From an uncultured Planctomycetia bacterium (GTDB lineage Bacteria > Omnitrophota > Gorgyraeia > Tantalellales > Tantalellaceae), in contig CAZNEE010000001.1 in assembly GCA_964572255.1 (NCBI GenBank), forward strand, positions 395,587 to 459,586: a stretch of DNA of 64,000 nt, in the 5' to 3' direction. Positions 5,952-47,486 of this stretch are shown in pieces. A model generated the notes under the pieces. It was not told the DNA's origin. It worked only from the letters and a program-made list of their open reading frames with translations, and did no database searches. Each line of letters starts with the position of its first letter. Position 1 is the stretch's first letter. Made by a program: the position numbers and the translations under genes.

Positions 5952-7640
5952 ATGTTCAAGACACGCCAATATTTTATATTTTTCATCTTAATATTAATTT
6001 TATTCTTCTTATTTGCAAGATTGGCCTATCTGCAGGTTATAAATCGCAAGAAATTCTCAGAGTTAGCCTCCGACCAGCACAACAGTATAATAAAAGTCGA
6101 GCCGAGAAGGGGGACGATATATGACAGGTTCATGGAACCCTTGGCGATCAATCTTGATGTCCCGAGTATTTATGCTGATCCCCGCAGCATCCATGACAAG
6201 AAGTATGTCTCAGATAAGCTTTCCGGTATATTGAACATGAACAGCTCCGTTTTACTCGAAAGATTACAGAAGGATAAGGCTTTTGTCTGGGTAAAACGCA
6301 AAGTCAGCGCCCAAGAGGCGGAGAAGGTGAGGGTGCTCAAACTTGAAGGCGTGAATTTTGTAACGGAGAGTAAACGGCACTATCCGAATGATTCCATGGC
6401 CTGCCATGTTATAGGATTTGCCGGCATCGACAACGAGGGGCTTGAGGGGCTGGAGTTATCATTGAATGATGAGCTTAAGGGGCAGCATGGCTGGAGGTCA
6501 CTTGTCAGGGACGCGAAACGAAGAACAGTTCTTTTTAATGAAAGGGAATCTGTGCCGCCGCAAGACGGTTATAATGTGATCCTTACAATAGATAGTGTGA
6601 TACAATACATTGTAGAGGAAGAAATAAAGGCCATGGCCGAAAAGTATAATGCTTCCTCTGCTTCGTGTGTTGTGATGGAACCTTCAACCGGCAGGATACT
6701 TGCATTGTGCAACTATCCGGGTTTTGATCTTAACTCATTCGGACAGGTGCCTAAAGAAGGGGTCAAAAATGATCCCGTATCCAGCGTTTTTGAACCGGGA
6801 AGCGTTTTCAAGGTCGTTACTGCCGGCGCGTCATTAAACGAGATCGCGGTTGACCCTGAAGAGGAATTTGATTGTGAGAACGGTACCTACAACGTCGGCG
6901 GAAGGATATTGCATGATTACCACCCGTATGGGATATTATCCTTTAAAGAGGTTATTTCAAAATCAAGTAATATAGGCACGGTAAAAGCCGCGTACAAACT
7001 CGGCGATAAGAAATTATATGAATATATAAGAAAATTCGGTTTTGGCGAAAAGACCGGGATCGATCTGCCGGGAGAAGTAGAGGGCATTGTGAGGCCCCCG
7101 TCAACATGGTCAAGAAGCGACATGACAACGATACCTATCGGTCAGGGTATAGCCGTTACTACCATCCAGCTGGCCTGTACGGCAAGTACAATAGCTAATG
7201 GCGGGCTTCTCATGAAGCCGTATATTATCGATAAGATAACTACATGGGAGAACGAGACATTCAGAAAGAACGGTTCCGAACTTAAACGCCGTGTTTTAGA
7301 CGAAGTCACTTGTAACAGGATGAAAAATATAATGCATGAGGTGGTGTTAAACGGGACAGGAAGAAGGGCCGCTTCAAAGATCTACGAGTTTTGCGGAAAA
7401 ACCGGGACAGCGCAGGCAGTTGATCCAAATGGCGGATATTATCCGAATAAATACAACGCTACCTTTATAGGATTTGCTCCCAAAGAAAGACCTTTGGTCA
7501 GTATAGTTGTCACGGCCTATGATCCCCATCCTGTTCATTTCGGCGGGAGTGTGGCGGGGCCGGCTTTCAAGAGAATAGCGGAGCGCACGCTGCAGTATTT
7601 AAAAACAAATGTTCCTATAGCGGAACATGCTGATAATTAA
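5952..7640 (+). CDS. ftsI: Penicillin-binding protein 3 / FtsI transpeptidase
   Basis: SxxK (GSVFKVVTA), SxN (SKSSNIG) and KTG (GKTGTAQ) motifs are all present, plus an N-terminal TM. The ORF track starts at TTG 5940; the ATG at 5952 with a GGAG RBS is the preferred start. Confidence 0.85.
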   Translation: MFKTRQYFIFFILILILFFLFARLAYLQVINRKKFSELASDQHNSIIKVEPRRGTIYDRFMEPLAINLDVPSIYADPRSIHDKKYVSDKLSGILNMNSSVLLERLQKDKAFVWVKRKVSAQEAEKVRVLKLEGVNFVTESKRHYPNDSMACHVIGFAGIDNEGLEGLELSLNDELKGQHGWRSLVRDAKRRTVLFNERESVPPQDGYNVILTIDSVIQYIVEEEIKAMAEKYNASSASCVVMEPSTGRILALCNYPGFDLNSFGQVPKEGVKNDPVSSVFEPGSVFKVVTAGASLNEIAVDPEEEFDCENGTYNVGGRILHDYHPYGILSFKEVISKSSNIGTVKAAYKLGDKKLYEYIRKFGFGEKTGIDLPGEVEGIVRPPSTWSRSDMTTIPIGQGIAVTTIQLACTASTIANGGLLMKPYIIDKITTWENETFRKNGSELKRRVLDEVTCNRMKNIMHEVVLNGTGRRAASKIYEFCGKTGTAQAVDPNGGYYPNKYNATFIGFAPKERPLVSIVVTAYDPHPVHFGGSVAGPAFKRIAERTLQYLKTNVPIAEHADN

Positions 7641-9102
7641 TAAAAAAATGTATAACACGATCGAAAAAATATTAAAACAAACCCCGTTCAATAAGGATAA
7701 CGTAAAGACTGACTCAAGGAAAGTTGCCCCCGGCGATATTTTTGTTGCGATAAAAGGCACGAGATATGATGGCCATGATTATATTCTTGGAGCGTTGAAA
7801 AAAGGCGCAAAACTTGTATTGTGCGAGGAAGAAATTGCCGGCCTGTCAGACGATGACAGAAAAAAAGTCATCAGAGTCGAAGACACTAAAAAAACTCTGG
7901 CGCTTATTGCCAAACATGTTTTTAACGACCCGTCCAATTCACTCAAGGTATATGGGATAACAGGAACTAACGGTAAAACCACGACAGCGTTTCTGATAGA
8001 TAAGATCCTTAATACAGCGGGCACGGACTCCGGGTTCATAACAACAGTTTTCACCAAGACAGCGGGTGAGGAAGTGACGCGTTCATCGATGACAACGCCT
8101 GATTCCGTGACGCTCAACAGTTTGTTAAGAGATATGGCCGCAAACGGCAAGAAAGCCGCTGTGATGGAAGTTTCAAGCCATGCGCTTGATCAGGAGAGGG
8201 TATGCGGGATCGAATTTGCGAGCGCGGTATTTACGAACATTACCCCGGAGCACCTGGATTATCACGGCAGTATGGAGAAATATCTTAAGGATAAGTCCAG
8301 GATATTTGAAAACTTGAAGGCAAACAGCATAGCGGTGCTTAATCAGGATGACCAGTCCGTCAGGAGCATCAAAAGTGCGATAACCGGCAGGGTAGTCACT
8401 TTCGGCATAAAGGAAAGAGCCGATATAATCGCCAGGAACATAAAATTATCATCCGACGGTACTTCTTTTGATCTTATTATTGATAATGCAGGTTCATTAC
8501 ATGTTGAGACAAAACTGATCGGCGAGCATAATGTTTATAATATTCTGGCGTCTGTAGCAGCGCTCGTTGATAGCGGTATCGATCTAAGTGTTTTCGAAAA
8601 GGCGCTGAATGAAGCTGTATCGGTCCCCGGCAGGCTGGAACTGGTTACGGATAAAACCCCTTTTCGGATTTTCGTGGATTATGCGCATACACCTGACGCT
8701 TTGGAGAATGTTTTAAAGTGTCTTAAAGATCTGAGTGAAAACCGGCTTATGTGTGTTTTTGGTTGCGGCGGAGACCGGGATAAGACCAAAAGGCCTGTTA
8801 TGGGGGAAATAGCCAGCAGGATATGCGACAAGGTTATAATAACAAGTGATAATCCGAGAACAGAGGATCCGCGCCAGATCATAAACCAGATCGAAAAAGG
8901 CGTGCTCAAGGGTGCGGACTATAGTATAATATTAGATAGAAAAAAAGCTATCTTTGAGGCAATTGATAAGGCAAAAGAAAAGGATATTATCGTTATCGCG
9001 GGCAAGGGGCACGAGGACTATCAGATCATAGGCGATAAGGTGTTAGAGTTCGACGATAAAAAAGTCGCCCTTGAAATACTAAAAGAATTAAAGTATATAT
9101 AG
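7627..9102 (+). CDS. murE: UDP-N-acetylmuramoyl-L-alanyl-D-glutamate--2,6-diaminopimelate ligase MurE
   Basis: Mur ligase P-loop GITGTNGKTTT. The DNPR motif (SDNPRTEDP) indicates meso-DAP specificity. Confidence 0.9.
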   Translation: MLIINKKMYNTIEKILKQTPFNKDNVKTDSRKVAPGDIFVAIKGTRYDGHDYILGALKKGAKLVLCEEEIAGLSDDDRKKVIRVEDTKKTLALIAKHVFNDPSNSLKVYGITGTNGKTTTAFLIDKILNTAGTDSGFITTVFTKTAGEEVTRSSMTTPDSVTLNSLLRDMAANGKKAAVMEVSSHALDQERVCGIEFASAVFTNITPEHLDYHGSMEKYLKDKSRIFENLKANSIAVLNQDDQSVRSIKSAITGRVVTFGIKERADIIARNIKLSSDGTSFDLIIDNAGSLHVETKLIGEHNVYNILASVAALVDSGIDLSVFEKALNEAVSVPGRLELVTDKTPFRIFVDYAHTPDALENVLKCLKDLSENRLMCVFGCGGDRDKTKRPVMGEIASRICDKVIITSDNPRTEDPRQIINQIEKGVLKGADYSIILDRKKAIFEAIDKAKEKDIIVIAGKGHEDYQIIGDKVLEFDDKKVALEILKELKYI

Positions 9103-9112
9103 CAAGTGTTCG

Positions 9113-9160
9113 GACTATTCCTCGCAGGGACGTCAAAATTCCCCAGCGAGGAATTTTGAC
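9113..9160. repeat. Palindromic repeat family A, copy 1 (core CTCGCAGGGACGTCAAAATTCCCCAGCGAG)
   Basis: A second copy is at 32517-32575. Its flanking stem bases co-vary: TTCCTCGC/GCGAGGAA here versus TTTCTCGC/GCGAGAAA in copy 2. It sits in an unusual ~160 bp gap between murE and murF. Confidence 0.6.
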
Positions 9161-9263
9161 TCAAAAGTTCCCTCGCTCGTCGAGCCAATTTAACGCAGGA
9201 CACCGTGCTCGCTCGGTCACTTATGCCCTGCTCGGAACAGTCCAAACACTTGCAATAAATATT

Positions 9264-10631
9264 ATGTTTAATTTCACTATTACCGACATACTCAAGATCA
9301 CCGGCGGGGAATTGTTTGCCGGAGCCGAAGAGACTCCCGTCAAAGGGTTCTCGATCGATTCAAGGACCATCAAGCCCGGGGATATATTCATTGCCGTAAA
9401 AGGTGAGCATTTTGACGGACATGATTTCATGGACCAGGCAATAAGCAGGGGCGCTTCAGGAATAATCGCAGAAAGACCGCCTTCCGGTTTAATTTCCTCG
9501 AACATGATCAAAGTTGAGAATACGATAGAAGCAATGGTGAGGATCGCCCGTTACTTAAGAGGATTATCGGATATCCCGGTAATATGCATAACCGGAACTA
9601 ACGGGAAAACAACTGTTAAAGATATTCTATCTCACATATTATCGACGAAATACAAAGTTCTTAAAAGCGAAAAGTCTTACAATAATACCATCGGGGTTTG
9701 CCTTACATTGTTTGGATTGGATGCTTCACACCAGATCGCCGTTCTTGAATTGGGGACAAATCATTTTGGCGAGATAAGGAAGCTTGCGGAGATAGCATTG
9801 CCTGATATTGCCGTTATTAATAATATAGGAAGAGGCCACATCGAATTTTTCGGGGACATTGAAGGAGTATTCAAAGAAAAGACGAGTTTACTGGATGTAT
9901 TGCCTGAAAAAGGAACGGTTTTCTTGAACAAGGACGATGCGATGCTTAGTTCCGTAAAGAAGTGTGCGTGCGGGAAAAAATTTTTTGGAAGATCGTCCGG
10001 AAGCGATCTATTGATCTCCGATATTCAAAGGCAAGAAGAAGGGTACAGCTTTCTTGTGAACGGAGAGAAATTCAATATTCCTCTTGAAGGAGAACATAAT
10101 GTTTATAATGCCGCAGCGGCTATTGCGGTGGCGAAAGAGTTCGGGATAGAGAATAGCAAAATAAAAGAAAAGCTGGCAGGTATTTCCCCGCCTGAGATGC
10201 GGCTTCAAAAAATGAAACTTGGCGATGTATTTTTTATCAACGATTCTTATAATGCCAATCCGGATTCTTTTAAAAGTGCGCTCGATGTTCTTTCCGCGGT
10301 ATCTTCAGGCGGCAGAAAAGGGATCATTGCGGGATGCATGATGGAATTGGGCGGCGAAAGCGACCGGATGCATAGAGATCTGGGAGAAGATATCGCGTTG
10401 AAAGGTTTTGATTTCCTGATAACTGTAGGCGGCAACGCAAGGCATATTGCGGAAGGGGCAAAGCATAAAGGGATGGATCCTTCCAATATCTTTGAAGCTG
10501 ACAGCAATAGGACAGCGGCCGATCATATGAAAAACATCACTAAAACGGGCGATGTGGTTCTTTTAAAAGGTTCCAGAAAAGCGAAATTGGAGGAAGTGCT
10601 TACATGTTTTACCACTTGCTGTACCCGTTAA
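9264..10631 (+). CDS. murF: UDP-N-acetylmuramoyl-tripeptide--D-alanyl-D-alanine ligase MurF
   Basis: Mur ligase P-loop ITGTNGKTT, and position after murE. The start is placed at ATG 9264 (MFNFTITDIL...). The upstream extension to 9156 only reads through repeat A. Confidence 0.85.
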   Translation: MFNFTITDILKITGGELFAGAEETPVKGFSIDSRTIKPGDIFIAVKGEHFDGHDFMDQAISRGASGIIAERPPSGLISSNMIKVENTIEAMVRIARYLRGLSDIPVICITGTNGKTTVKDILSHILSTKYKVLKSEKSYNNTIGVCLTLFGLDASHQIAVLELGTNHFGEIRKLAEIALPDIAVINNIGRGHIEFFGDIEGVFKEKTSLLDVLPEKGTVFLNKDDAMLSSVKKCACGKKFFGRSSGSDLLISDIQRQEEGYSFLVNGEKFNIPLEGEHNVYNAAAAIAVAKEFGIENSKIKEKLAGISPPEMRLQKMKLGDVFFINDSYNANPDSFKSALDVLSAVSSGGRKGIIAGCMMELGGESDRMHRDLGEDIALKGFDFLITVGGNARHIAEGAKHKGMDPSNIFEADSNRTAADHMKNITKTGDVVLLKGSRKAKLEEVLTCFTTCCTR

Positions 10632-11692
10632 AAGAATTCTGGTTCGGGTTCAATATTTTCAGATACATAACTTTTCGGGCGAGCATGGCCGTTTTCACAT
10701 CTTTCGCCATTTGCGTGATATTCGGCCCTTTGGTAATAAAATGGCTTAAGGCTTTGCAGGTATGGCAGTATGTCCGCCGTGAACACGTTCATTCGCTGTA
10801 TGATCTGCACAAGCATAAAGAGGGAACCCCGACGATGGGGGGCATAATCATTATTCTTTCCGTCGTTGCTTCGTCATTATTATGGTGCCGCCTGGATAAT
10901 GATCTGGTGCTTCTTACTGTGGGAGGGATGATCTGGCTCGGGCTTGTAGGTTTTGCGGATGACATAATAAAGCTTAACAATAAAAGCGCTAAAGGCATAG
11001 CGGCGGCCACTAAACTTTTCGGCCAAATAACCCTGGCGCTTATCGTGGGCATTTTTGTTGTCAAAGGGAACCTGATAGGTACCGGGCTGTATTTGCCGTT
11101 CGTTAAAAATGCGGTAATGAACTTAGGTCTGTTTTACATGCTTTTAGTGCTTGTTGTAATAGTCGGTTCTTCCAATGCCGTGAACCTTACGGATGGCCTC
11201 GATGGTCTTGCCATAGGTTGCGTGATCTTCGTGGCCTGCACTTATGGCGTGATGAGTTATGTCACGGGCAACTCTGTTATAAGCGGCTATTTGAATGTTT
11301 TTTACCTTCCGGGTTCCGGCGAACTTTCCGTTTTTTGTGCCGCCCTGATAGGCGCGGGATTGGGTTTTTTGTGGTTCAACAGCCACCCGGCAACTGTTTT
11401 TATGGGGGATACAGGGGCGCTTTCTCTCGGCGGGGCAATAGGCATAGTGAGCATATTGATAAAAAAAGAGATACTGCTTTTTTTCGCGGGCGGAATATTT
11501 GTTATCGAAGCTTTATCGGTGATTTTACAGATATTGTCAGTTAAGACCAGAAAAAAAAGAATTTTTCTGATGTCTCCCATTCATCACCATTTTCAGTTAA
11601 AAGGATGGCATGAATCCAAGATCACCATTCGTTTCTGGATAATCGCTGCCATACTGGCTCTCTTGAGCATGGCTACGTTAAAGGTTAGATAA
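10604..11692 (+). CDS. mraY: Phospho-N-acetylmuramoyl-pentapeptide transferase MraY
   Basis: 10-TM protein with the conserved MraY N-terminus (LLYPLKEFWFGFNIFRYITFRA) and the DGLDGLA motif. Confidence 0.9.
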   Translation: MFYHLLYPLKEFWFGFNIFRYITFRASMAVFTSFAICVIFGPLVIKWLKALQVWQYVRREHVHSLYDLHKHKEGTPTMGGIIIILSVVASSLLWCRLDNDLVLLTVGGMIWLGLVGFADDIIKLNNKSAKGIAAATKLFGQITLALIVGIFVVKGNLIGTGLYLPFVKNAVMNLGLFYMLLVLVVIVGSSNAVNLTDGLDGLAIGCVIFVACTYGVMSYVTGNSVISGYLNVFYLPGSGELSVFCAALIGAGLGFLWFNSHPATVFMGDTGALSLGGAIGIVSILIKKEILLFFAGGIFVIEALSVILQILSVKTRKKRIFLMSPIHHHFQLKGWHESKITIRFWIIAAILALLSMATLKVR

Positions 11693-20291: not shown

Positions 20292-20310
20292 TATTGACTT
20301 TGTTTTAGAA

Positions 20311-20382
20311 GTACAGTGCATTTCCTACCAGGGCCCCTCCGCCCGGTGTGGATCCTCCCTGTACGGAAATACACTGTACTTT
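20311..20382 (+). repeat. Structured repeat family B, copy 1 (core GGGCCCCTCCGCCCGGTGTGGATCCTCCC inside a 16-bp outer stem; core-sense on plus strand)
   Basis: The 27-nt core is identical to the copies at 31412-31481 and, in reverse complement, 32625-32695. A 43-nt stretch is identical to copy 3. Outer stems co-vary between copies. The hairpin is followed by TTTT, so it may also serve as the ftsA terminator. Confidence 0.7.
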
Positions 20383-20499
20383 TGAATAAAAGTAAAGCAG
20401 AAAAGTACTTGGCGCTAGATTCCCTTTGCTATTGACATGTATATAAAATTATGCTACTTTTAACCATTAAAATTATTAATATTATAGGGAAAATATGCC

Positions 20500-31325: not shown

Positions 31326-31411
31326 TTCTCCCCCCTTAATTGTTGATACATTGTGTATACCATAAAAGGCGATGCGAGTCAAATAGTTGATGAGAATCTC
31401 AATATTAAAGT

Positions 31412-31481
31412 GAGTGGTAGGTACCTTTCGTGGGCCCCTCCGCCCGGTGTGGATCCTCCCACTCAAGGCACCTACCACTCG
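31412..31481 (+). repeat. Structured repeat family B, copy 2 (core-sense on plus strand)
   Basis: The identical 27-nt core GGGCCCCTCCGCCCGGTGTGGATCCTCCC. The outer stem is different but still self-complementary: GAGTGGTAGGTACC / GGCACCTACCACTC. Confidence 0.7.
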
Positions 31482-31542
31482 CTTTAATTAAGAAGATCCA
31501 CTGCTCGCTTCGATGGCGGGTGAAAAAGATCATGAAAAAATT

Positions 31543-31599: not shown

Positions 31600-31700
31600 T
31601 GTTTTTATTACGAATCGTAAACCATTCGAAAGAGTGGGGCACAAAGCCAGGGGGCGTAAGGCCGGCCGGCTACCGTTTTAACACTGTCGTAAAGTGTTGA
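31600..31700 (+). ncRNA. c-di-GMP-I (GEMM) riboswitch aptamer
   Basis: AAACCATTCGAAAGAGTGGG at 31619-31638 is identical over 20 nt to the P2 hairpin of the Vibrio cholerae Vc2 GEMM-I aptamer. GCACAAAGCC at 31639-31648 is the Vc2 ACGCAAAGCC motif with its first two bases swapped. A GGCGTAAGG tetraloop-receptor-like P3 follows. It sits in a ~200-nt leader. Confidence 0.65.
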
Positions 31701-31728: not shown

Positions 31729-31760
31729 GTCCCAACCTTACGATAGGTTGGGTTTTTGTT
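31729..31760 (+). terminator. Intrinsic terminator acting as riboswitch expression platform
   Basis: CCCAACC (31731-37), loop TTACGATA, GGTTGGG (31746-52), then TTTTTGTTTATT. It lies immediately 5' of the AGGAGA RBS and ATG of the downstream gene. Confidence 0.6.
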
Positions 31761-31776
31761 TATTAGGAGACTGAAG

Positions 31777-32397
31777 ATGAAAGAAACATGCGATCTTATC
31801 ATTATATTGCTGATGACTATACTGCTCGGGGGTGTTGCGTTCGCGTCCGAAAGTAAACCGGATCTGTACGAGATCACCGGTTACGAAGGAACGCAAGGGA
31901 TCGTTTCATCAGATTATGAAAAGTTAAATACTACAAAAGCGGAAACTGTTTTTCAGATACTGTTGGAAGACGCGGGCTATTGCGACGAAAATATTTTTGG
32001 TATTTACAGTTTTACTGATATTGATGGGATGATAACTGTGGATGTTATGCATCAAATATTCAAAGGGACAGATGCCCCGGGTAGTGAGAAAAACATCTAC
32101 CCCGGGATAAATTCTGAGATAGGGTTTTATCTCACAACACCGCAAGGCTATACGTATTATAGCCATACGTCTTTGAATCCCGATCGAGAGCAGCACATGC
32201 TGCTGTTCTCTTATTCTGATGTCAGCGATTCTGAGAGTTTTGTTGTTGCATGTGAGGACCTGTATGGTTTGGGTGACTGCGATTATAATGATCTTGTTGT
32301 TAAAGCAAGCGACGTACAAGGCAATCCCGAACCGGCTACAATATTATCGTTCTTCCTAGCCGGACTTGGTCTGGCATTTAGAAAAATGAGAAAATAA
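31777..32397 (+). CDS. Secreted PEP-CTERM protein (exosortase substrate), riboswitch-controlled
   Basis: Signal peptide MKETCDLIIILLMTILLGGVAFA. The C-terminal NPEPATILSFFLAGLGLAFRKMRK has PEP followed by a TM helix and a basic cluster. An internal EDLYGLGDCDYNDLVV motif is DUF4114-like. Confidence 0.6.
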   Translation: MKETCDLIIILLMTILLGGVAFASESKPDLYEITGYEGTQGIVSSDYEKLNTTKAETVFQILLEDAGYCDENIFGIYSFTDIDGMITVDVMHQIFKGTDAPGSEKNIYPGINSEIGFYLTTPQGYTYYSHTSLNPDREQHMLLFSYSDVSDSESFVVACEDLYGLGDCDYNDLVVKASDVQGNPEPATILSFFLAGLGLAFRKMRK

Positions 32398-32417: not shown

Positions 32418-32456
32418 AAAAGCCCGCTATGCAAAAGCATAGCGGGCTTTATTATT
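32418..32456 (+). terminator. Rho-independent terminator
   Basis: AAAGCCCGCTATGC-AAAA-GCATAGCGGGCTTT forms a perfect 14-bp stem, followed by ATTATT. Confidence 0.65.
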
Positions 32457-32516
32457 CAGTTGGTTCACAAAAGAAAAAGAAGATTCTTTTCCCCTGAGAA
32501 TTATTAATTATAAACA

Positions 32517-32575
32517 GCCGTTTAAACTATTTCTCGCAGGGACGTCAAAATTTCCCAGCGAGAAACAGTTCAAAC
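32517..32575. repeat. Palindromic repeat family A, copy 2 (extended stem CCGTTTAAACTATTTCTCGC...GCGAGAAACAGTTCAAACGG)
   Basis: It shares the core CTCGCAGGGACGTCAAAAT(T)TCCCAGCGAG with 9113-9160. The stem bases are co-varying. Confidence 0.6.
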
Positions 32576-32624
32576 GGCCGTAATAATGGATAATGTCAAA
32601 TATCTCGCTGATTTTGCTTTTTAA

Positions 32625-32695
32625 AGTGCAGTATGTTTCCGTACAGGGAGGATCCACACCGGGCGGAGGGGCCCTGGTAGGAAATATACTGCACT
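32625..32695 (-). repeat. Structured repeat family B, copy 3 (core on minus strand)
   Basis: Its reverse complement is identical to copy 1 over a 43-nt stretch. The outer stem differs at two base pairs, both with compensatory changes (A-T to G-C, and G-C to A-T). Confidence 0.7.
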
Positions 32696-32750
32696 TCTGA
32701 ATAAACATAAAGTCAGAATTTTTTTTGACATTATGCCTCAACGAATGTTA

Positions 32751-46293: not shown

Positions 46294-46641
46294 ATGATCA
46301 GAATGCGCAAATTACTAGGAAAGGGTGGTTTTACGCTTGTTGAAATTATGATTGTTGTCGCAATTATAGGTTTATTAGCCGCAGTGGCCATCCCGAACTT
46401 CATGCGTGCAAGACAAAGAGCGCAGACAAACGCTTGTATCGCGAATCTGAAACAGATGGACGGCGCGAAGACATTGTGGGCGCTGGATACAGGTGCTGCC
46501 AGCGGTGCTGCAGTGACCATGGCAAACCTTGTTACTGCGTACATAAAATCAACACCGTCTTGTCCCGCAAACGGTACTTACACGATCGGTGCAATAGGGA
46601 CTACTCCTACATGCACTGTTTCAGGCCACGCGCTGCCGTAA
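46294..46641 (+). CDS. pilA: Type IV pilin (prepilin-type N-terminal cleavage/methylation domain), tandem copy 1
   Basis: GKGG then FTLVEIMIVVAIIGLLAAVAIPNF is the class III signal. A C-terminal Cys pair (disulfide-loop region) is present. 115 aa. It has its own strong terminator. Confidence 0.8.
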   Translation: MIRMRKLLGKGGFTLVEIMIVVAIIGLLAAVAIPNFMRARQRAQTNACIANLKQMDGAKTLWALDTGAASGAAVTMANLVTAYIKSTPSCPANGTYTIGAIGTTPTCTVSGHALP

Positions 46642-46677
46642 TTACGGTAACGGTTTCAGCGGGCGCAAAATGTTTAT

Positions 46678-46714
46678 AAAAGGAGGCGATTCTTATCGCC
46701 TCCTTTTATATTTT
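46678..46714 (+). terminator. Rho-independent terminator after pilin 1
   Basis: GGAGGCGAT-TCTT-ATCGCCTCC forms a 9-bp stem, followed by TTTTATATTTT. Confidence 0.7.
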
Positions 46715-46781
46715 ATAACTTATGAAACTTTAGTAGGATTTGCCTTTTGCGCATATGATGGTATACTTAAGGCAAAAATTT

Positions 46782-47120
46782 ATGCTTACGATCAGAAAAA
46801 AACAGGGTTTTACGCTTGTTGAAATAATGATAGTTGTTGCCATTATCGGCTTATTGGCAGCGGTGGCTATACCGAATTTTATGCGCTCGAGGGAAAGAGC
46901 GCAGACCAATGCCTGCATTTCGAACTTGAAGCAGATAGCGGGAGCGAAGACATTATGGGCGATCGATTACGGCGCTATTACAGGAGATCCCGTTATGATG
47001 TCTGATCTGTGCACGGCATATTTTAAGACCGCACCTCAATGCCCCGCGGGGGGAACATACACACTGGGAGCGGTAGGGACCGAACCGACATGCAGTGTTT
47101 CCGGACATGAATTGCCTTAG
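46782..47120 (+). CDS. pilA: Type IV pilin, tandem copy 2
   Basis: KKQG then FTLVEIMIVVAIIGLLAAVAIPNF. A paralog of copy 1, identical over the N-terminal helix. Confidence 0.75.
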   Translation: MLTIRKKQGFTLVEIMIVVAIIGLLAAVAIPNFMRSRERAQTNACISNLKQIAGAKTLWAIDYGAITGDPVMMSDLCTAYFKTAPQCPAGGTYTLGAVGTEPTCSVSGHELP

Positions 47121-47138
47121 ATTTACAAGTCTTATCAC

Positions 47139-47486
47139 ATGAAAGTGATCTATCAAAAAAAAGGTTTCACTCTCATCGAAATAGTGCTTGTCGCCACTGT
47201 TATTGCCTTTTTGGTGGCTCTGGTCGTTCCGAATGCCATGCGCGCCAGGCAAAGATCACAGACGAATACATGCATTACGAATTTAAAACAGATAGCGGGC
47301 GCAAAAACCTTATGGGCTATTGAGGGGGGCCTGGTGAGCGGGGATACGATAGATCTTGCCGACATTATTTCGGCGTATTTCAAGGAAACGCCTGTCTGCC
47401 CCGCGGGAGGTACTTATACCATAGGAATGGTCGGTGTTGATCCCGCTTGCAATGTTCCGGGCCATGTTCTTCCGGAAAATGAATAG
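47139..47486 (+). CDS. pilA: Type IV pilin, tandem copy 3
   Basis: QKKG then FTLIEIVLVATVIAFLVALVVPN. More diverged paralog. Confidence 0.75.
   Translation: MKVIYQKKGFTLIEIVLVATVIAFLVALVVPNAMRARQRSQTNTCITNLKQIAGAKTLWAIEGGLVSGDTIDLADIISAYFKETPVCPAGGTYTIGMVGVDPACNVPGHVLPENE

Follow-up and report, generated by a model that had tools for sequence, protein, structure and literature searches.

The murE–murF spacer and the element within it

The stretch of DNA considered here (hereafter the window) comprises 64,000 nt of contig CAZNEE010000001.1 (positions 395,587 to 459,586 of the forward strand), and the subject is the spacer between murE and murF in its division and cell wall (dcw) cluster. The murE stop codon TAG ends at 9102 and the murF ATG lies at 9264, which leaves 161 nt, in agreement with the roughly 160 bp given in a preliminary description of the window made from the sequence alone. 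A spacer of this length is unusual, because in four related Omnitrophota genomes the two genes overlap or lie 43 nt apart. It is one copy of a previously undescribed, ~150-nt, non-coding interspersed family that has so far been found only in Omnitrophota, the phylum in which MurE and GmhB homologues place both the window organism and the carrier of a diverged copy (L013). In the databases, MurE identity drops from 100% to 61% for the window organism. The sole MurE relative in between (L116 1360–1566, P0086; 81% over half its length) lies on a contig that leaves murE before the end of the gene, continues into tRNA-like sequence and may be chimeric or rearranged; it therefore gives no murE–murF junction. 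The features at the locus, together with the second copy in the window, are the following (helix arms and helices are listed without strand).

7627–9102, plus strand: murE, the upstream flank, encoding Mur ligase domains
9102–9253, minus strand (the better-folding one): complete copy 1 of the element, 152 nt
9102–9121: 5' arm of helix P1, GCAAGTGTTCGGACTATTCC, copy-specific in sequence, pairing with 9234–9253
9118–9153, plus strand: hairpin of the preliminary description, TTCCTCGC...GCGAGGAA, which competes with P1b and P3
9124–9129: 5' arm of helix P1b, GCAGGG, a 6-bp helix with CCCTGC at 9226–9231
9132–9160: P3, a 13-bp hairpin, GTCAAAATTCCCC-AGC-GAGGAATTTTGAC; 6 of 11 pairs double-changed, 96.6% of cells paired
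9161–9225: P2 domain, with the stem AAGT (9165–9168)/ACTT (9219–9222) plus CC/GG
9226–9231: 3' arm of P1b, CCCTGC, pairing with GCAGGG at 9124–9129
9234–9253: 3' arm of P1, GGAACAGTCCAAACACTTGC; 16 of the 25 P1/P1b pairs changed on both sides
9264–10631, plus strand: murF, start ATG 9264, 455 amino acids (aa)
32515–32580, minus strand: copy 2, an internal-deletion derivative in a 66-nt form, between a DUF4114 gene and mreB

The preliminary description had singled out a palindrome between murE and murF, TTCCTCGC-AGGGACGTCAAAATTCCCCA-GCGAGGAA, and a second copy of it elsewhere in the window. Both are present: the palindrome lies at 9118–9153, the surrounding 40-nt core (9114–9153; family D13) recurs at 32526–32565 with 93% identity, and the 19-mer CTCGCAGGGACGTCAAAAT occurs twice in the window against 0.05 expected occurrences, a count reached in none of 100 shuffles. 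The compensating stem change reported between the two copies (C-G to U-A) and the GACGTC site are likewise there. The palindrome is, however, only a small part of a 152-nt unit (9102–9253), whose first base is the G of the murE stop TAG and whose end lies 10 nt ahead of the murF ATG.

This unit is closed by a 20-bp inverted repeat, P1 (GCAAGTGTTCGGACTATTCC...GGAACAGTCCAAACACTTGC), whose two plus-strand A·C oppositions are G·U pairs on the minus strand. P1 is divided from P1b by a 2x2 loop that reads as tandem G·A on the minus strand, and P1b encloses P3 and the P2 domain, so that the core is a three-way junction. The P2 domain holds tandem G·A motifs made of GAGCGAG on both strands and includes a conserved block, ACCGTGCTCGCTC, at 9202–9214. 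Copy 1 scores 168.7 bits on the minus strand against 29.9 bits on the plus strand in R1, and 144.4 bits in R2; its predicted RNA fold reaches −80.0 kcal/mol on the minus strand and −62.7 kcal/mol on the plus strand, with z-scores of −8.8 and −7.2, respectively.

Seen against this architecture, several details of the preliminary description change their meaning. The TTCCTCGC/GCGAGGAA hairpin is missing from the minimum-free-energy fold of both strands and its pairing is absent in a diverged subfamily, and the supposed alternative pairing GTCAAAATTCC/GGAATTTTGAC does exist, yet it is no alternative: it is the conserved hairpin P3 of the full-length copies. A switch built on the three-way alternative pairing was rejected, being confined to the window subfamily, as was GACGTC as a functional palindrome, which is not kept in copies L142, L137, L128 or L132. 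A hammerhead or other small-ribozyme core was also considered and set aside; by inspection, the strands at the junction (CAU / UUGA / GU) do not match such a core, and Rfam is silent.

Copies in the window organism and in a second Omnitrophota clade

Copy 2 was said to have a longer outer stem, and so it does, but that stem is the closing helix P1, brought next to the remnant of the core by an 82-nt deletion between GCGA|GAAA and GCTC|GAAA that took the P3 3' arm, the whole of P2 and the P1b 3' arm and left P1 in place. The short 66-nt form occupies this locus in the window, L117 and L119, whereas a full 148-nt unit stands at exactly the same place in L118 and L125, which come from a closely related strain. 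About 65 nt upstream of copy 2, at 32420–32449 after the DUF4114 gene, lies a perfect G+C-rich hairpin (AAAGCCCGCTATGC-AAAA-GCATAGCGGGCTTT) that resembles a terminator of that gene; the terminator scan did not list it, its T-run being too short.

An exact scan of the GTDB species representatives did not find the 19-mer, and no copy of the element was found among viral contigs, phage records or plasmid records. Among the 27 matches listed by a 17-mer scan of metagenome contigs, three are true copies. L008 is the long form of copy 2. The L018 copy (1039–1186), from the same study as the window, has a core identical to that of copy 1; a thioredoxin gene flanks it on one side and the promoter of an rfaE-kdsB-kdsA-kdsD operon on the other. 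The L013 copy (11013–11158) is diverged, belongs to another organism and stands at the junction of a GT2 glycosyltransferase gene with a gmhB-like one. L018 probably belongs to the window organism, judging from the identical core, the common study and the pattern of contig breaks, although the two share no contig: two murE-bearing Logan contigs end inside the element, exactly 31 nt past the last base that separates copy 1 from the L018 copy, as a 31-mer assembler does at a repeat. A further copy in L142 (10598–10646, 3' of a GH57 gene; GCAGGGACGTAAAATTTCTCCAGCGTAGA) is cut by the end of its Logan contig and was recovered at 18.8 bits (E 0.058, model positions 101–148). Covariance-model searches over ~0.5 Mb of other loci gave no further members.

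Capped scans of metagenomes and genomes, and look-ups confined to window proteins and search hits, gave a sample of nine loci, with eight full copies entering the alignment and the fold comparisons. The element is therefore neither unique to two loci nor poorly conserved in structure, and it conceals no conserved small gene, the outcomes that the preliminary description had named as fatal to its proposal. Related copies exist in a second Omnitrophota clade and probably also elsewhere in the window organism. Cell-envelope genes adjoin four of the five distinct loci (murE–murF, mreBCD-pbp2-rodA, rfaE-kdsB-kdsA-kdsD and GT2–gmhB; the fifth follows the GH57 gene), for which a rough post-hoc estimate gives a chance probability of 0.002–0.01; the orientation of the element relative to these genes varies.

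A covarying fold with one constrained strand

To assess covariation, the eight full copies were aligned by sequence with MAFFT, without any structural fitting. P1, P1b and P3 together contain 36 pairs, 22 of them changed on both sides, and 92.2% of the cells are standard pairs; shuffled controls give 76.5%, with none in 500 as high as the observed figure, and slid controls at most 57%. In the P2 stem, each of the three subfamilies has a sequence of its own, unrelated to the other two yet always complementary (AAGU..CC/GG.ACUU, UUUUCUUUC/GAAAGAAAA and GAAGAGCC/GGCUAUUC). All four helices covary. The blocks conserved throughout, read on the minus strand, are GAGCGRGCAYGGU and a GAGCGAG just before the 3' strand of P2; between the two GAGCGA strands, tandem sheared G·A pairs can form on either side of a GC step.

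Which of the two strands is it that folds? The minus strand folds 6.6–17 kcal/mol better in 8 of 8 full copies. In its folds, 36 pairs are G·U while symmetric A·C mismatches number 3; a further 29 positions, mostly tandem, are G·A. In P1 and P3, every transition-type mismatch that can be placed is an A·C on the plus strand (two in copy 1, three in copy 2, two in L018, one in L013, three in L142, one in L128 and one in L132), including changes that occurred in place between strains and between orthologues. This asymmetry of G·U over A·C therefore identifies the minus strand as the constrained one. A mutational origin was considered and rejected, since a C-to-T bias of the leading or non-transcribed strand predicts the opposite sign; the GC skew of the plus strand is +0.10 to +0.19. 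At murE–murF, the foldable minus strand is antisense to the dcw operon; across seven independent insertion events, the strand that folds is the bottom one with respect to the flanking open reading frames (ORFs) in five, the exceptions being L018 and L137. At 5 to 2, orientation relative to neighbouring genes is effectively unbiased.

Turnover at an orthologous junction

The GT2–gmhB junction was gathered from seven lineages through GmhB homologue look-ups, and the element was located in it with the covariance model. Its plus strand is sense to the genes in L013, L142, L128–131 and L132–135; L137 and L138 carry it in the opposite orientation; L136 has no element there and a spacer of 1 nt; and L139 and L144, in which a different gene lies upstream of gmhB, have none. 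Six concatenated proteins give the tree (L139,((L142,L137),(L013,(L128,(L136,L132))))), from which it follows that the element was lost in L136. L013 and L142 share P1 and the junction even though the deepest ingroup node separates them. In L128 and L132 the junction is occupied by a strongly diverged subfamily, whose cores are ~50–55% identical to the others. The L137 core is of the L013/L142 type, but its P1 is unrelated, at ~45% identity to that of L142 and L013. Taken together, the tree and the copies show that one junction has seen retention, replacement, re-insertion or inversion, and loss. The arrangement at this junction matches that at murE–murF: the stop codon of the upstream gene stands inside P1 or 3 nt before it and the ribosome-binding site comes after P1. 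Several GmhB homologues (195–222 aa) are annotated with extended N-termini, which in L137 and L142 enter the upstream element; those of L139 and L144 are extended with no element present.

The paralogues of the window organism behave differently from orthologues in one respect. Their cores are 92–96% identical while their P1 arms are 58–75% identical (Fisher p 3e-7 to 5e-4), whereas between the orthologous copies of L128 and L132 P1 (85%) and core (89%) show no difference. P1 is as conserved as the core in that pair and is therefore not intrinsically hypermutable. That P1 differs between insertion events while cores within one genome stay nearly identical fits either recent copying or gene conversion.

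Transcription signals and a second hairpin family

No intrinsic terminator or U-tract was found on either strand at the two window copies or at L018, and no sigma-70-like promoter consistent with the element was found on either strand. The lack of promoters at the element is informative because L018 shows that the organism uses canonical ones: a sigma-70 promoter close to consensus (TTGACA-18-TAAAAT, TG-extended; L018 1197–1226) lies 11 nt past the element, ahead of rfaE. For the element, Rfam 15 gave no match at gathering threshold in the window, L013, L128 or L137, and at E values up to 10 only a chance microRNA hairpin (16.7 bits against a gathering score of 90).

The window also holds hairpins of a second family, B, at 20307–20383, 31409–31483 and 32623–32697, with a further one in L001 (440–505), ~1.9 kb upstream of the window start. 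They occur in both orientations and have an invariant core, TTCC-TACC-AGGG-CCCCTCCGCCCGGTGTGGATCCT-CCCT-GTAC-GGAA (CCTCCGCCCGGTGTGGATCC), inside copy-specific outer stems; the loop has two CCUCC motifs, which are GGAGG on the other strand. Many assemblies break inside this hairpin, and Rfam has no match to it. The same core, identical base for base and inside an unrelated outer stem (ATGATAATTGGTGTG...), lies between mraY and murD in the dcw cluster of another Omnitrophota metagenome-assembled genome in GTDB (L034 6943–7028, JAJRVD010000030.1; MurE 56% identical), so hairpins with conserved cores and variable stems recur at dcw junctions within the phylum. Two families of the same build thus share the window genome.

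A family B hairpin lies ~120 nt upstream of a c-di-GMP-I riboswitch (31606–31677, plus strand; 48.3 bits against a gathering score of 35), itself upstream of the DUF4114 gene (31756–32397). Elsewhere, three 169-nt repeats at 46319–47323, 72–77% identical and spaced 479 and 357 nt apart, occupy a 1.4-kb stretch with no ORF of at least 130 aa between pilC and a TPR gene of the type IV pilus cluster; these may be tandem small pilin genes.

What kind of element is it?

The reading we favour, although with only about even confidence, is that the element is a dispersed, structure-dependent repeat of the REPIN/bcr1 kind that the dcw operon tolerates. Its multiple copies, the assembly breaks it causes, the deletion variant, the turnover at one junction, the independence of orientation, the lack of transcription signals of its own and the presence of a second such family all match this reading. 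Of the three options of the preliminary description, a REP-like element comes closest, in so far as the unit is non-coding, palindromic, multicopy and subject to turnover at one orthologous junction; the likeness is nonetheless only partial. The element would be a small, non-autonomous repeat of dynamic copy number, like REPINs, bcr1, ERIC and Correia elements, whose propagation or maintenance would depend on one strand folding as a single-stranded nucleic acid. One copy would have landed in a murE–murF junction that was formerly 11 nt or shorter, with the foldable strand as the bottom strand, antisense to the dcw operon. The operon would then tolerate it for perhaps three reasons: the element contains no terminator; the mRNA would receive the weaker, A·C-mismatched complement; and P1, once formed, would draw the stop codon of murE and the start of murF together, leaving no more than ~10 nt between them. 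The limits of the unit, its several copies, the covarying fold, the strand asymmetry, the deletion derivative, the events at the orthologous junction and the conservation above neutral are observed; we infer mobility, the way in which the operon tolerates the copy, and whether the folded molecule is single-stranded DNA or RNA.

Several observations weigh against the repeat reading. Orthologous copies are conserved well above the neutral level: L128 and L132 are 88% identical over the element (134/152) compared with 56% at four-fold degenerate sites in four flanking genes (182/325), and L013 and L142 are 82% identical (121/148) compared with 40% at such sites (84/211). This conservation and the purine-rich tandem G·A motifs would suit a functional RNA better than selfish DNA, provided that the copies are not being held near the family consensus by gene conversion from paralogues. 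No target-site duplication was seen, as no direct repeat abuts the ends in nine copies and only scattered AT-rich 3–4-mers occur there. No transposase, RAYT, reverse transcriptase or integrase is encoded in the 64-kb window or the flanking loci, where the genes are all housekeeping ones (dcw, mreBCD, type IV pilus, IleRS and others). Sequence at the termini differs from copy to copy, contrary to what MITEs (miniature inverted-repeat transposable elements) and REPINs show. Finally, no clean empty site was seen for the murE–murF copy, which is fixed in every strain sampled. Two further ideas on how such units might find their sites came to nothing: pre-existing 'empty' P1-like hairpins that could serve as insertion targets are absent from the window and neighbouring loci, and P1 arms acting as guides have no matches in the window besides the arms themselves.

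Could the family instead be one of host genes? It is possible, if rather less probable than the repeat reading, that the minus strand encodes a structured non-coding RNA, a three-way junction with its 5' and 3' ends paired in P1, perhaps protein-binding or catalytic, that was duplicated to several loci and is held under purifying selection for a function in the host; in that case, the murE–murF copy would be an RNA gene sitting within the operon in antisense orientation. The conservation of orthologues above four-fold sites (82–88% against 40–56%), the covariation of four helices across three subfamilies and the strong strand asymmetry, with mostly tandem G·A positions typical of RNA motifs, all argue for such a gene. 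Independence from the orientation of neighbours would fit a self-contained gene, near-identical cores with diverged flanks would fit the concerted evolution of a multicopy one, and the envelope genes next to four of five distinct loci (murF, mreB, rfaE-kdsBAD and gmhB) point the same way. Set against this are the missing sigma-70-like promoter and terminator in an organism that has clear sigma-70 promoters. P1 overlaps the upstream stop codon and ends 10–30 nt before the next start, and a promoter would therefore have to sit inside the murF or gmhB coding sequence. The element is, moreover, dispensable, having been lost in L136 and reduced by an 82-nt internal deletion in one strain, and at a single junction it was replaced by another subfamily and by an inverted copy. 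A related and slightly more tentative thought is that the element, perhaps along with family B, is a new Omnitrophota-specific structured RNA or single-stranded DNA module, under purifying selection on the antisense strand and recruited time and again to junctions beside envelope genes; its ~150 nt would fold as a three-way junction in which GAGCGA/GAGCGA strands make tandem G·A motifs, and possible roles are those of a trans-acting or protein-sequestering RNA, or of a substrate for a single-strand-specific enzyme.

The two remaining options of the preliminary description, an attenuator or an RNase-processing site, belong to a broader proposal that the element acts in cis in the dcw mRNA, as attenuator, RNase III/E site or stabilising hairpin, and sets the murE:murF ratio. 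We consider this improbable, although the proposal has points in its favour. Folding of the plus strand is strong as well (−62.7 kcal/mol, z-score −7.2), RNase III could plausibly act on the predicted ~28-bp coaxial helix of P1 and P1b, and ERIC and Correia elements exert such effects (PMC3184786, PMC2649163). The element is plus-sense to its neighbours in five of seven events, only three of which (w1 and the two GT2–gmhB subfamilies) are inside operon junctions. The attenuator is not supported, because neither strand has a U-tract or terminator after the stems, both orientations occur relative to flanking genes (5 to 2), even at the same junction, and the foldable strand is antisense to the dcw mRNA. 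More generally, the stem mismatches are A·C on the plus (mRNA) strand, so the mRNA strand is not the protected one; two copies are outside operons, with a terminator or the end of a gene on one side and the following promoter on the other; and the alternative pairings first described are not conserved in other subfamilies. A riboswitch or other cis-acting leader differs in the same respects, the structured strand being antisense in five of seven events and both orientations occurring upstream of gmhB. The −62.7 kcal/mol helix is nevertheless predicted to form in dcw mRNA, and RNase III may incidentally cleave it there.

Very improbable is an integron attC-type site, in which the folded bottom strand would be read by a site-specific recombinase. 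The element does lie at gene junctions, immediately behind a stop codon and ahead of the following gene; its palindrome is imperfect and about as long as an attC site; its outer helix is conserved in structure more than in sequence; and the strand kept foldable is the bottom one in five of seven insertion events, though not in L018 and L137. The R''/R' core sites (RYYYAAC/GTTRRRY) are, however, missing from the outer ends (GCAAGTG.., CAGCCG.., AAGACA.., AGCTTTGG..), and the ends of attC sites are conserved and their centre variable, the reverse of what is seen here. The copies are dispersed singly among housekeeping genes rather than cassettes, with no array and no integrase in the window.

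A protein-coding spacer (a small gene or an N-terminal extension of MurF) is effectively refuted: for it speak a frame open from TTG 9156 into murF, a 74-aa ORF on the minus strand and an automatic gene call of a 491-aa MurF, with 36 codons inside the element (9156–9263), but there is no conserved ORF among the copies, whose frames are shifted by a 2-nt indel and mostly interrupted by stops in L013, concatenated six-frame peptides of the element scored nothing against 5.8 billion proteins, and a MurF of 455 aa from ATG 9264, called by a second annotation pipeline, fits the 453–458 aa of relatives.

What follows, whichever reading holds? The element sits in essential operons (dcw and lipopolysaccharide-core genes) without breaking them, and it causes assembly breaks and mis-called starts, as with the murF annotated 36 codons too long. 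If it is a non-coding RNA, a new conserved structured RNA will have been found in a candidate phylum without a cultured model, with enough covariation support already to define the family. Under either reading, the covariance model built here allows a census of the family in complete genomes and metatranscriptomes.

Comparison with known repeat families

Mobile single-stranded elements of the IS200/IS605 kind offer one point of comparison. Their palindrome-associated transposable elements (PATEs) have subterminal hairpins at both ends but no terminal inverted repeats, insert 3' of a fixed tetra- or pentanucleotide and occur in genomes with TnpA. The Omnitrophota unit, by contrast, is closed as a whole by terminal inverted repeats, and no common tetranucleotide flanks it. 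MITEs are defined as elements of less than ~400 bp without coding capacity, with terminal inverted repeats and a target duplication (PMC3184786). At 152 nt and with no frame conserved, the unit resembles them in size and non-coding nature, and its dispersed copies show presence and absence, with two loci in the window, one in L018 and two in L142, and none in L136, L139 and L144. It differs in that the terminal repeats are not shared, each copy having its own 15–20-bp P1, in that no parent insertion sequence was seen, and in the missing flanking duplication. ERIC and Correia elements (CREE) are closer: like the Omnitrophota unit, they are imperfect palindromes of 100–160 bp between co-transcribed genes, in both orientations, that give long RNA helices open to RNase III or RNase E and occur as internal-deletion variants (PMC3184786, PMC2649163). 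They have conserved terminal inverted repeats and TA target duplications, in contrast to the variable termini and absent duplication found here. We know of no comparable above-neutral conservation of orthologous ERIC or Correia copies, and of no strand-specific G·U pattern described for them.

The nearest relatives in kind are REPINs and bcr1. REPINs are REP doublets that form hairpins and are mobilised by RAYT transposases (Bertels & Rainey 2011, PMC3116915). They share with the Omnitrophota element an extragenic hairpin of ~100–150 nt in several copies per genome (PMC3116915), a predicted fold of single-stranded DNA or RNA, the preservation of the hairpin by compensatory changes (here at 22 of 36 pairs), a long persistence within lineages and the ability of several families to share one genome. 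REPIN ends are, however, invariant inverted REP 16-mers around a variable middle, the reverse of the arrangement described here; a REPIN is a simple hairpin and not a three-way junction; and no RAYT (a Y1 transposase) is found among the genes of the window and its flanks. The bcr1 repeat, a unit of ~155 bp in the Bacillus cereus group that Delihas summarised (2011, PMC3184786), is of the same size, interspersed and non-coding, with a branched fold carrying compensatory changes and a genomic distribution that is not conserved between relatives. It differs in being flanked by 5-bp direct repeats, in having no sequence similarity to the Omnitrophota element, in being known to be transcribed, and in that its copies often lose structural stability, whereas orthologous copies of the element keep it. 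Because of its variable termini, the lack of a target duplication and the strong conservation in place, the family described here is placed beside, and not within, the named repeat families. REPINs and bcr1 both show that compensatory changes do occur in hairpin repeats that are mobile (PMC3116915, PMC3184786). If the Omnitrophota family is indeed a repeat of this kind, its hairpins are built in the opposite way to REPINs and MITEs, with a conserved branched core inside a copy-specific closing helix, and recognition or propagation would read the fold of the core on one strand rather than the ends of the element.

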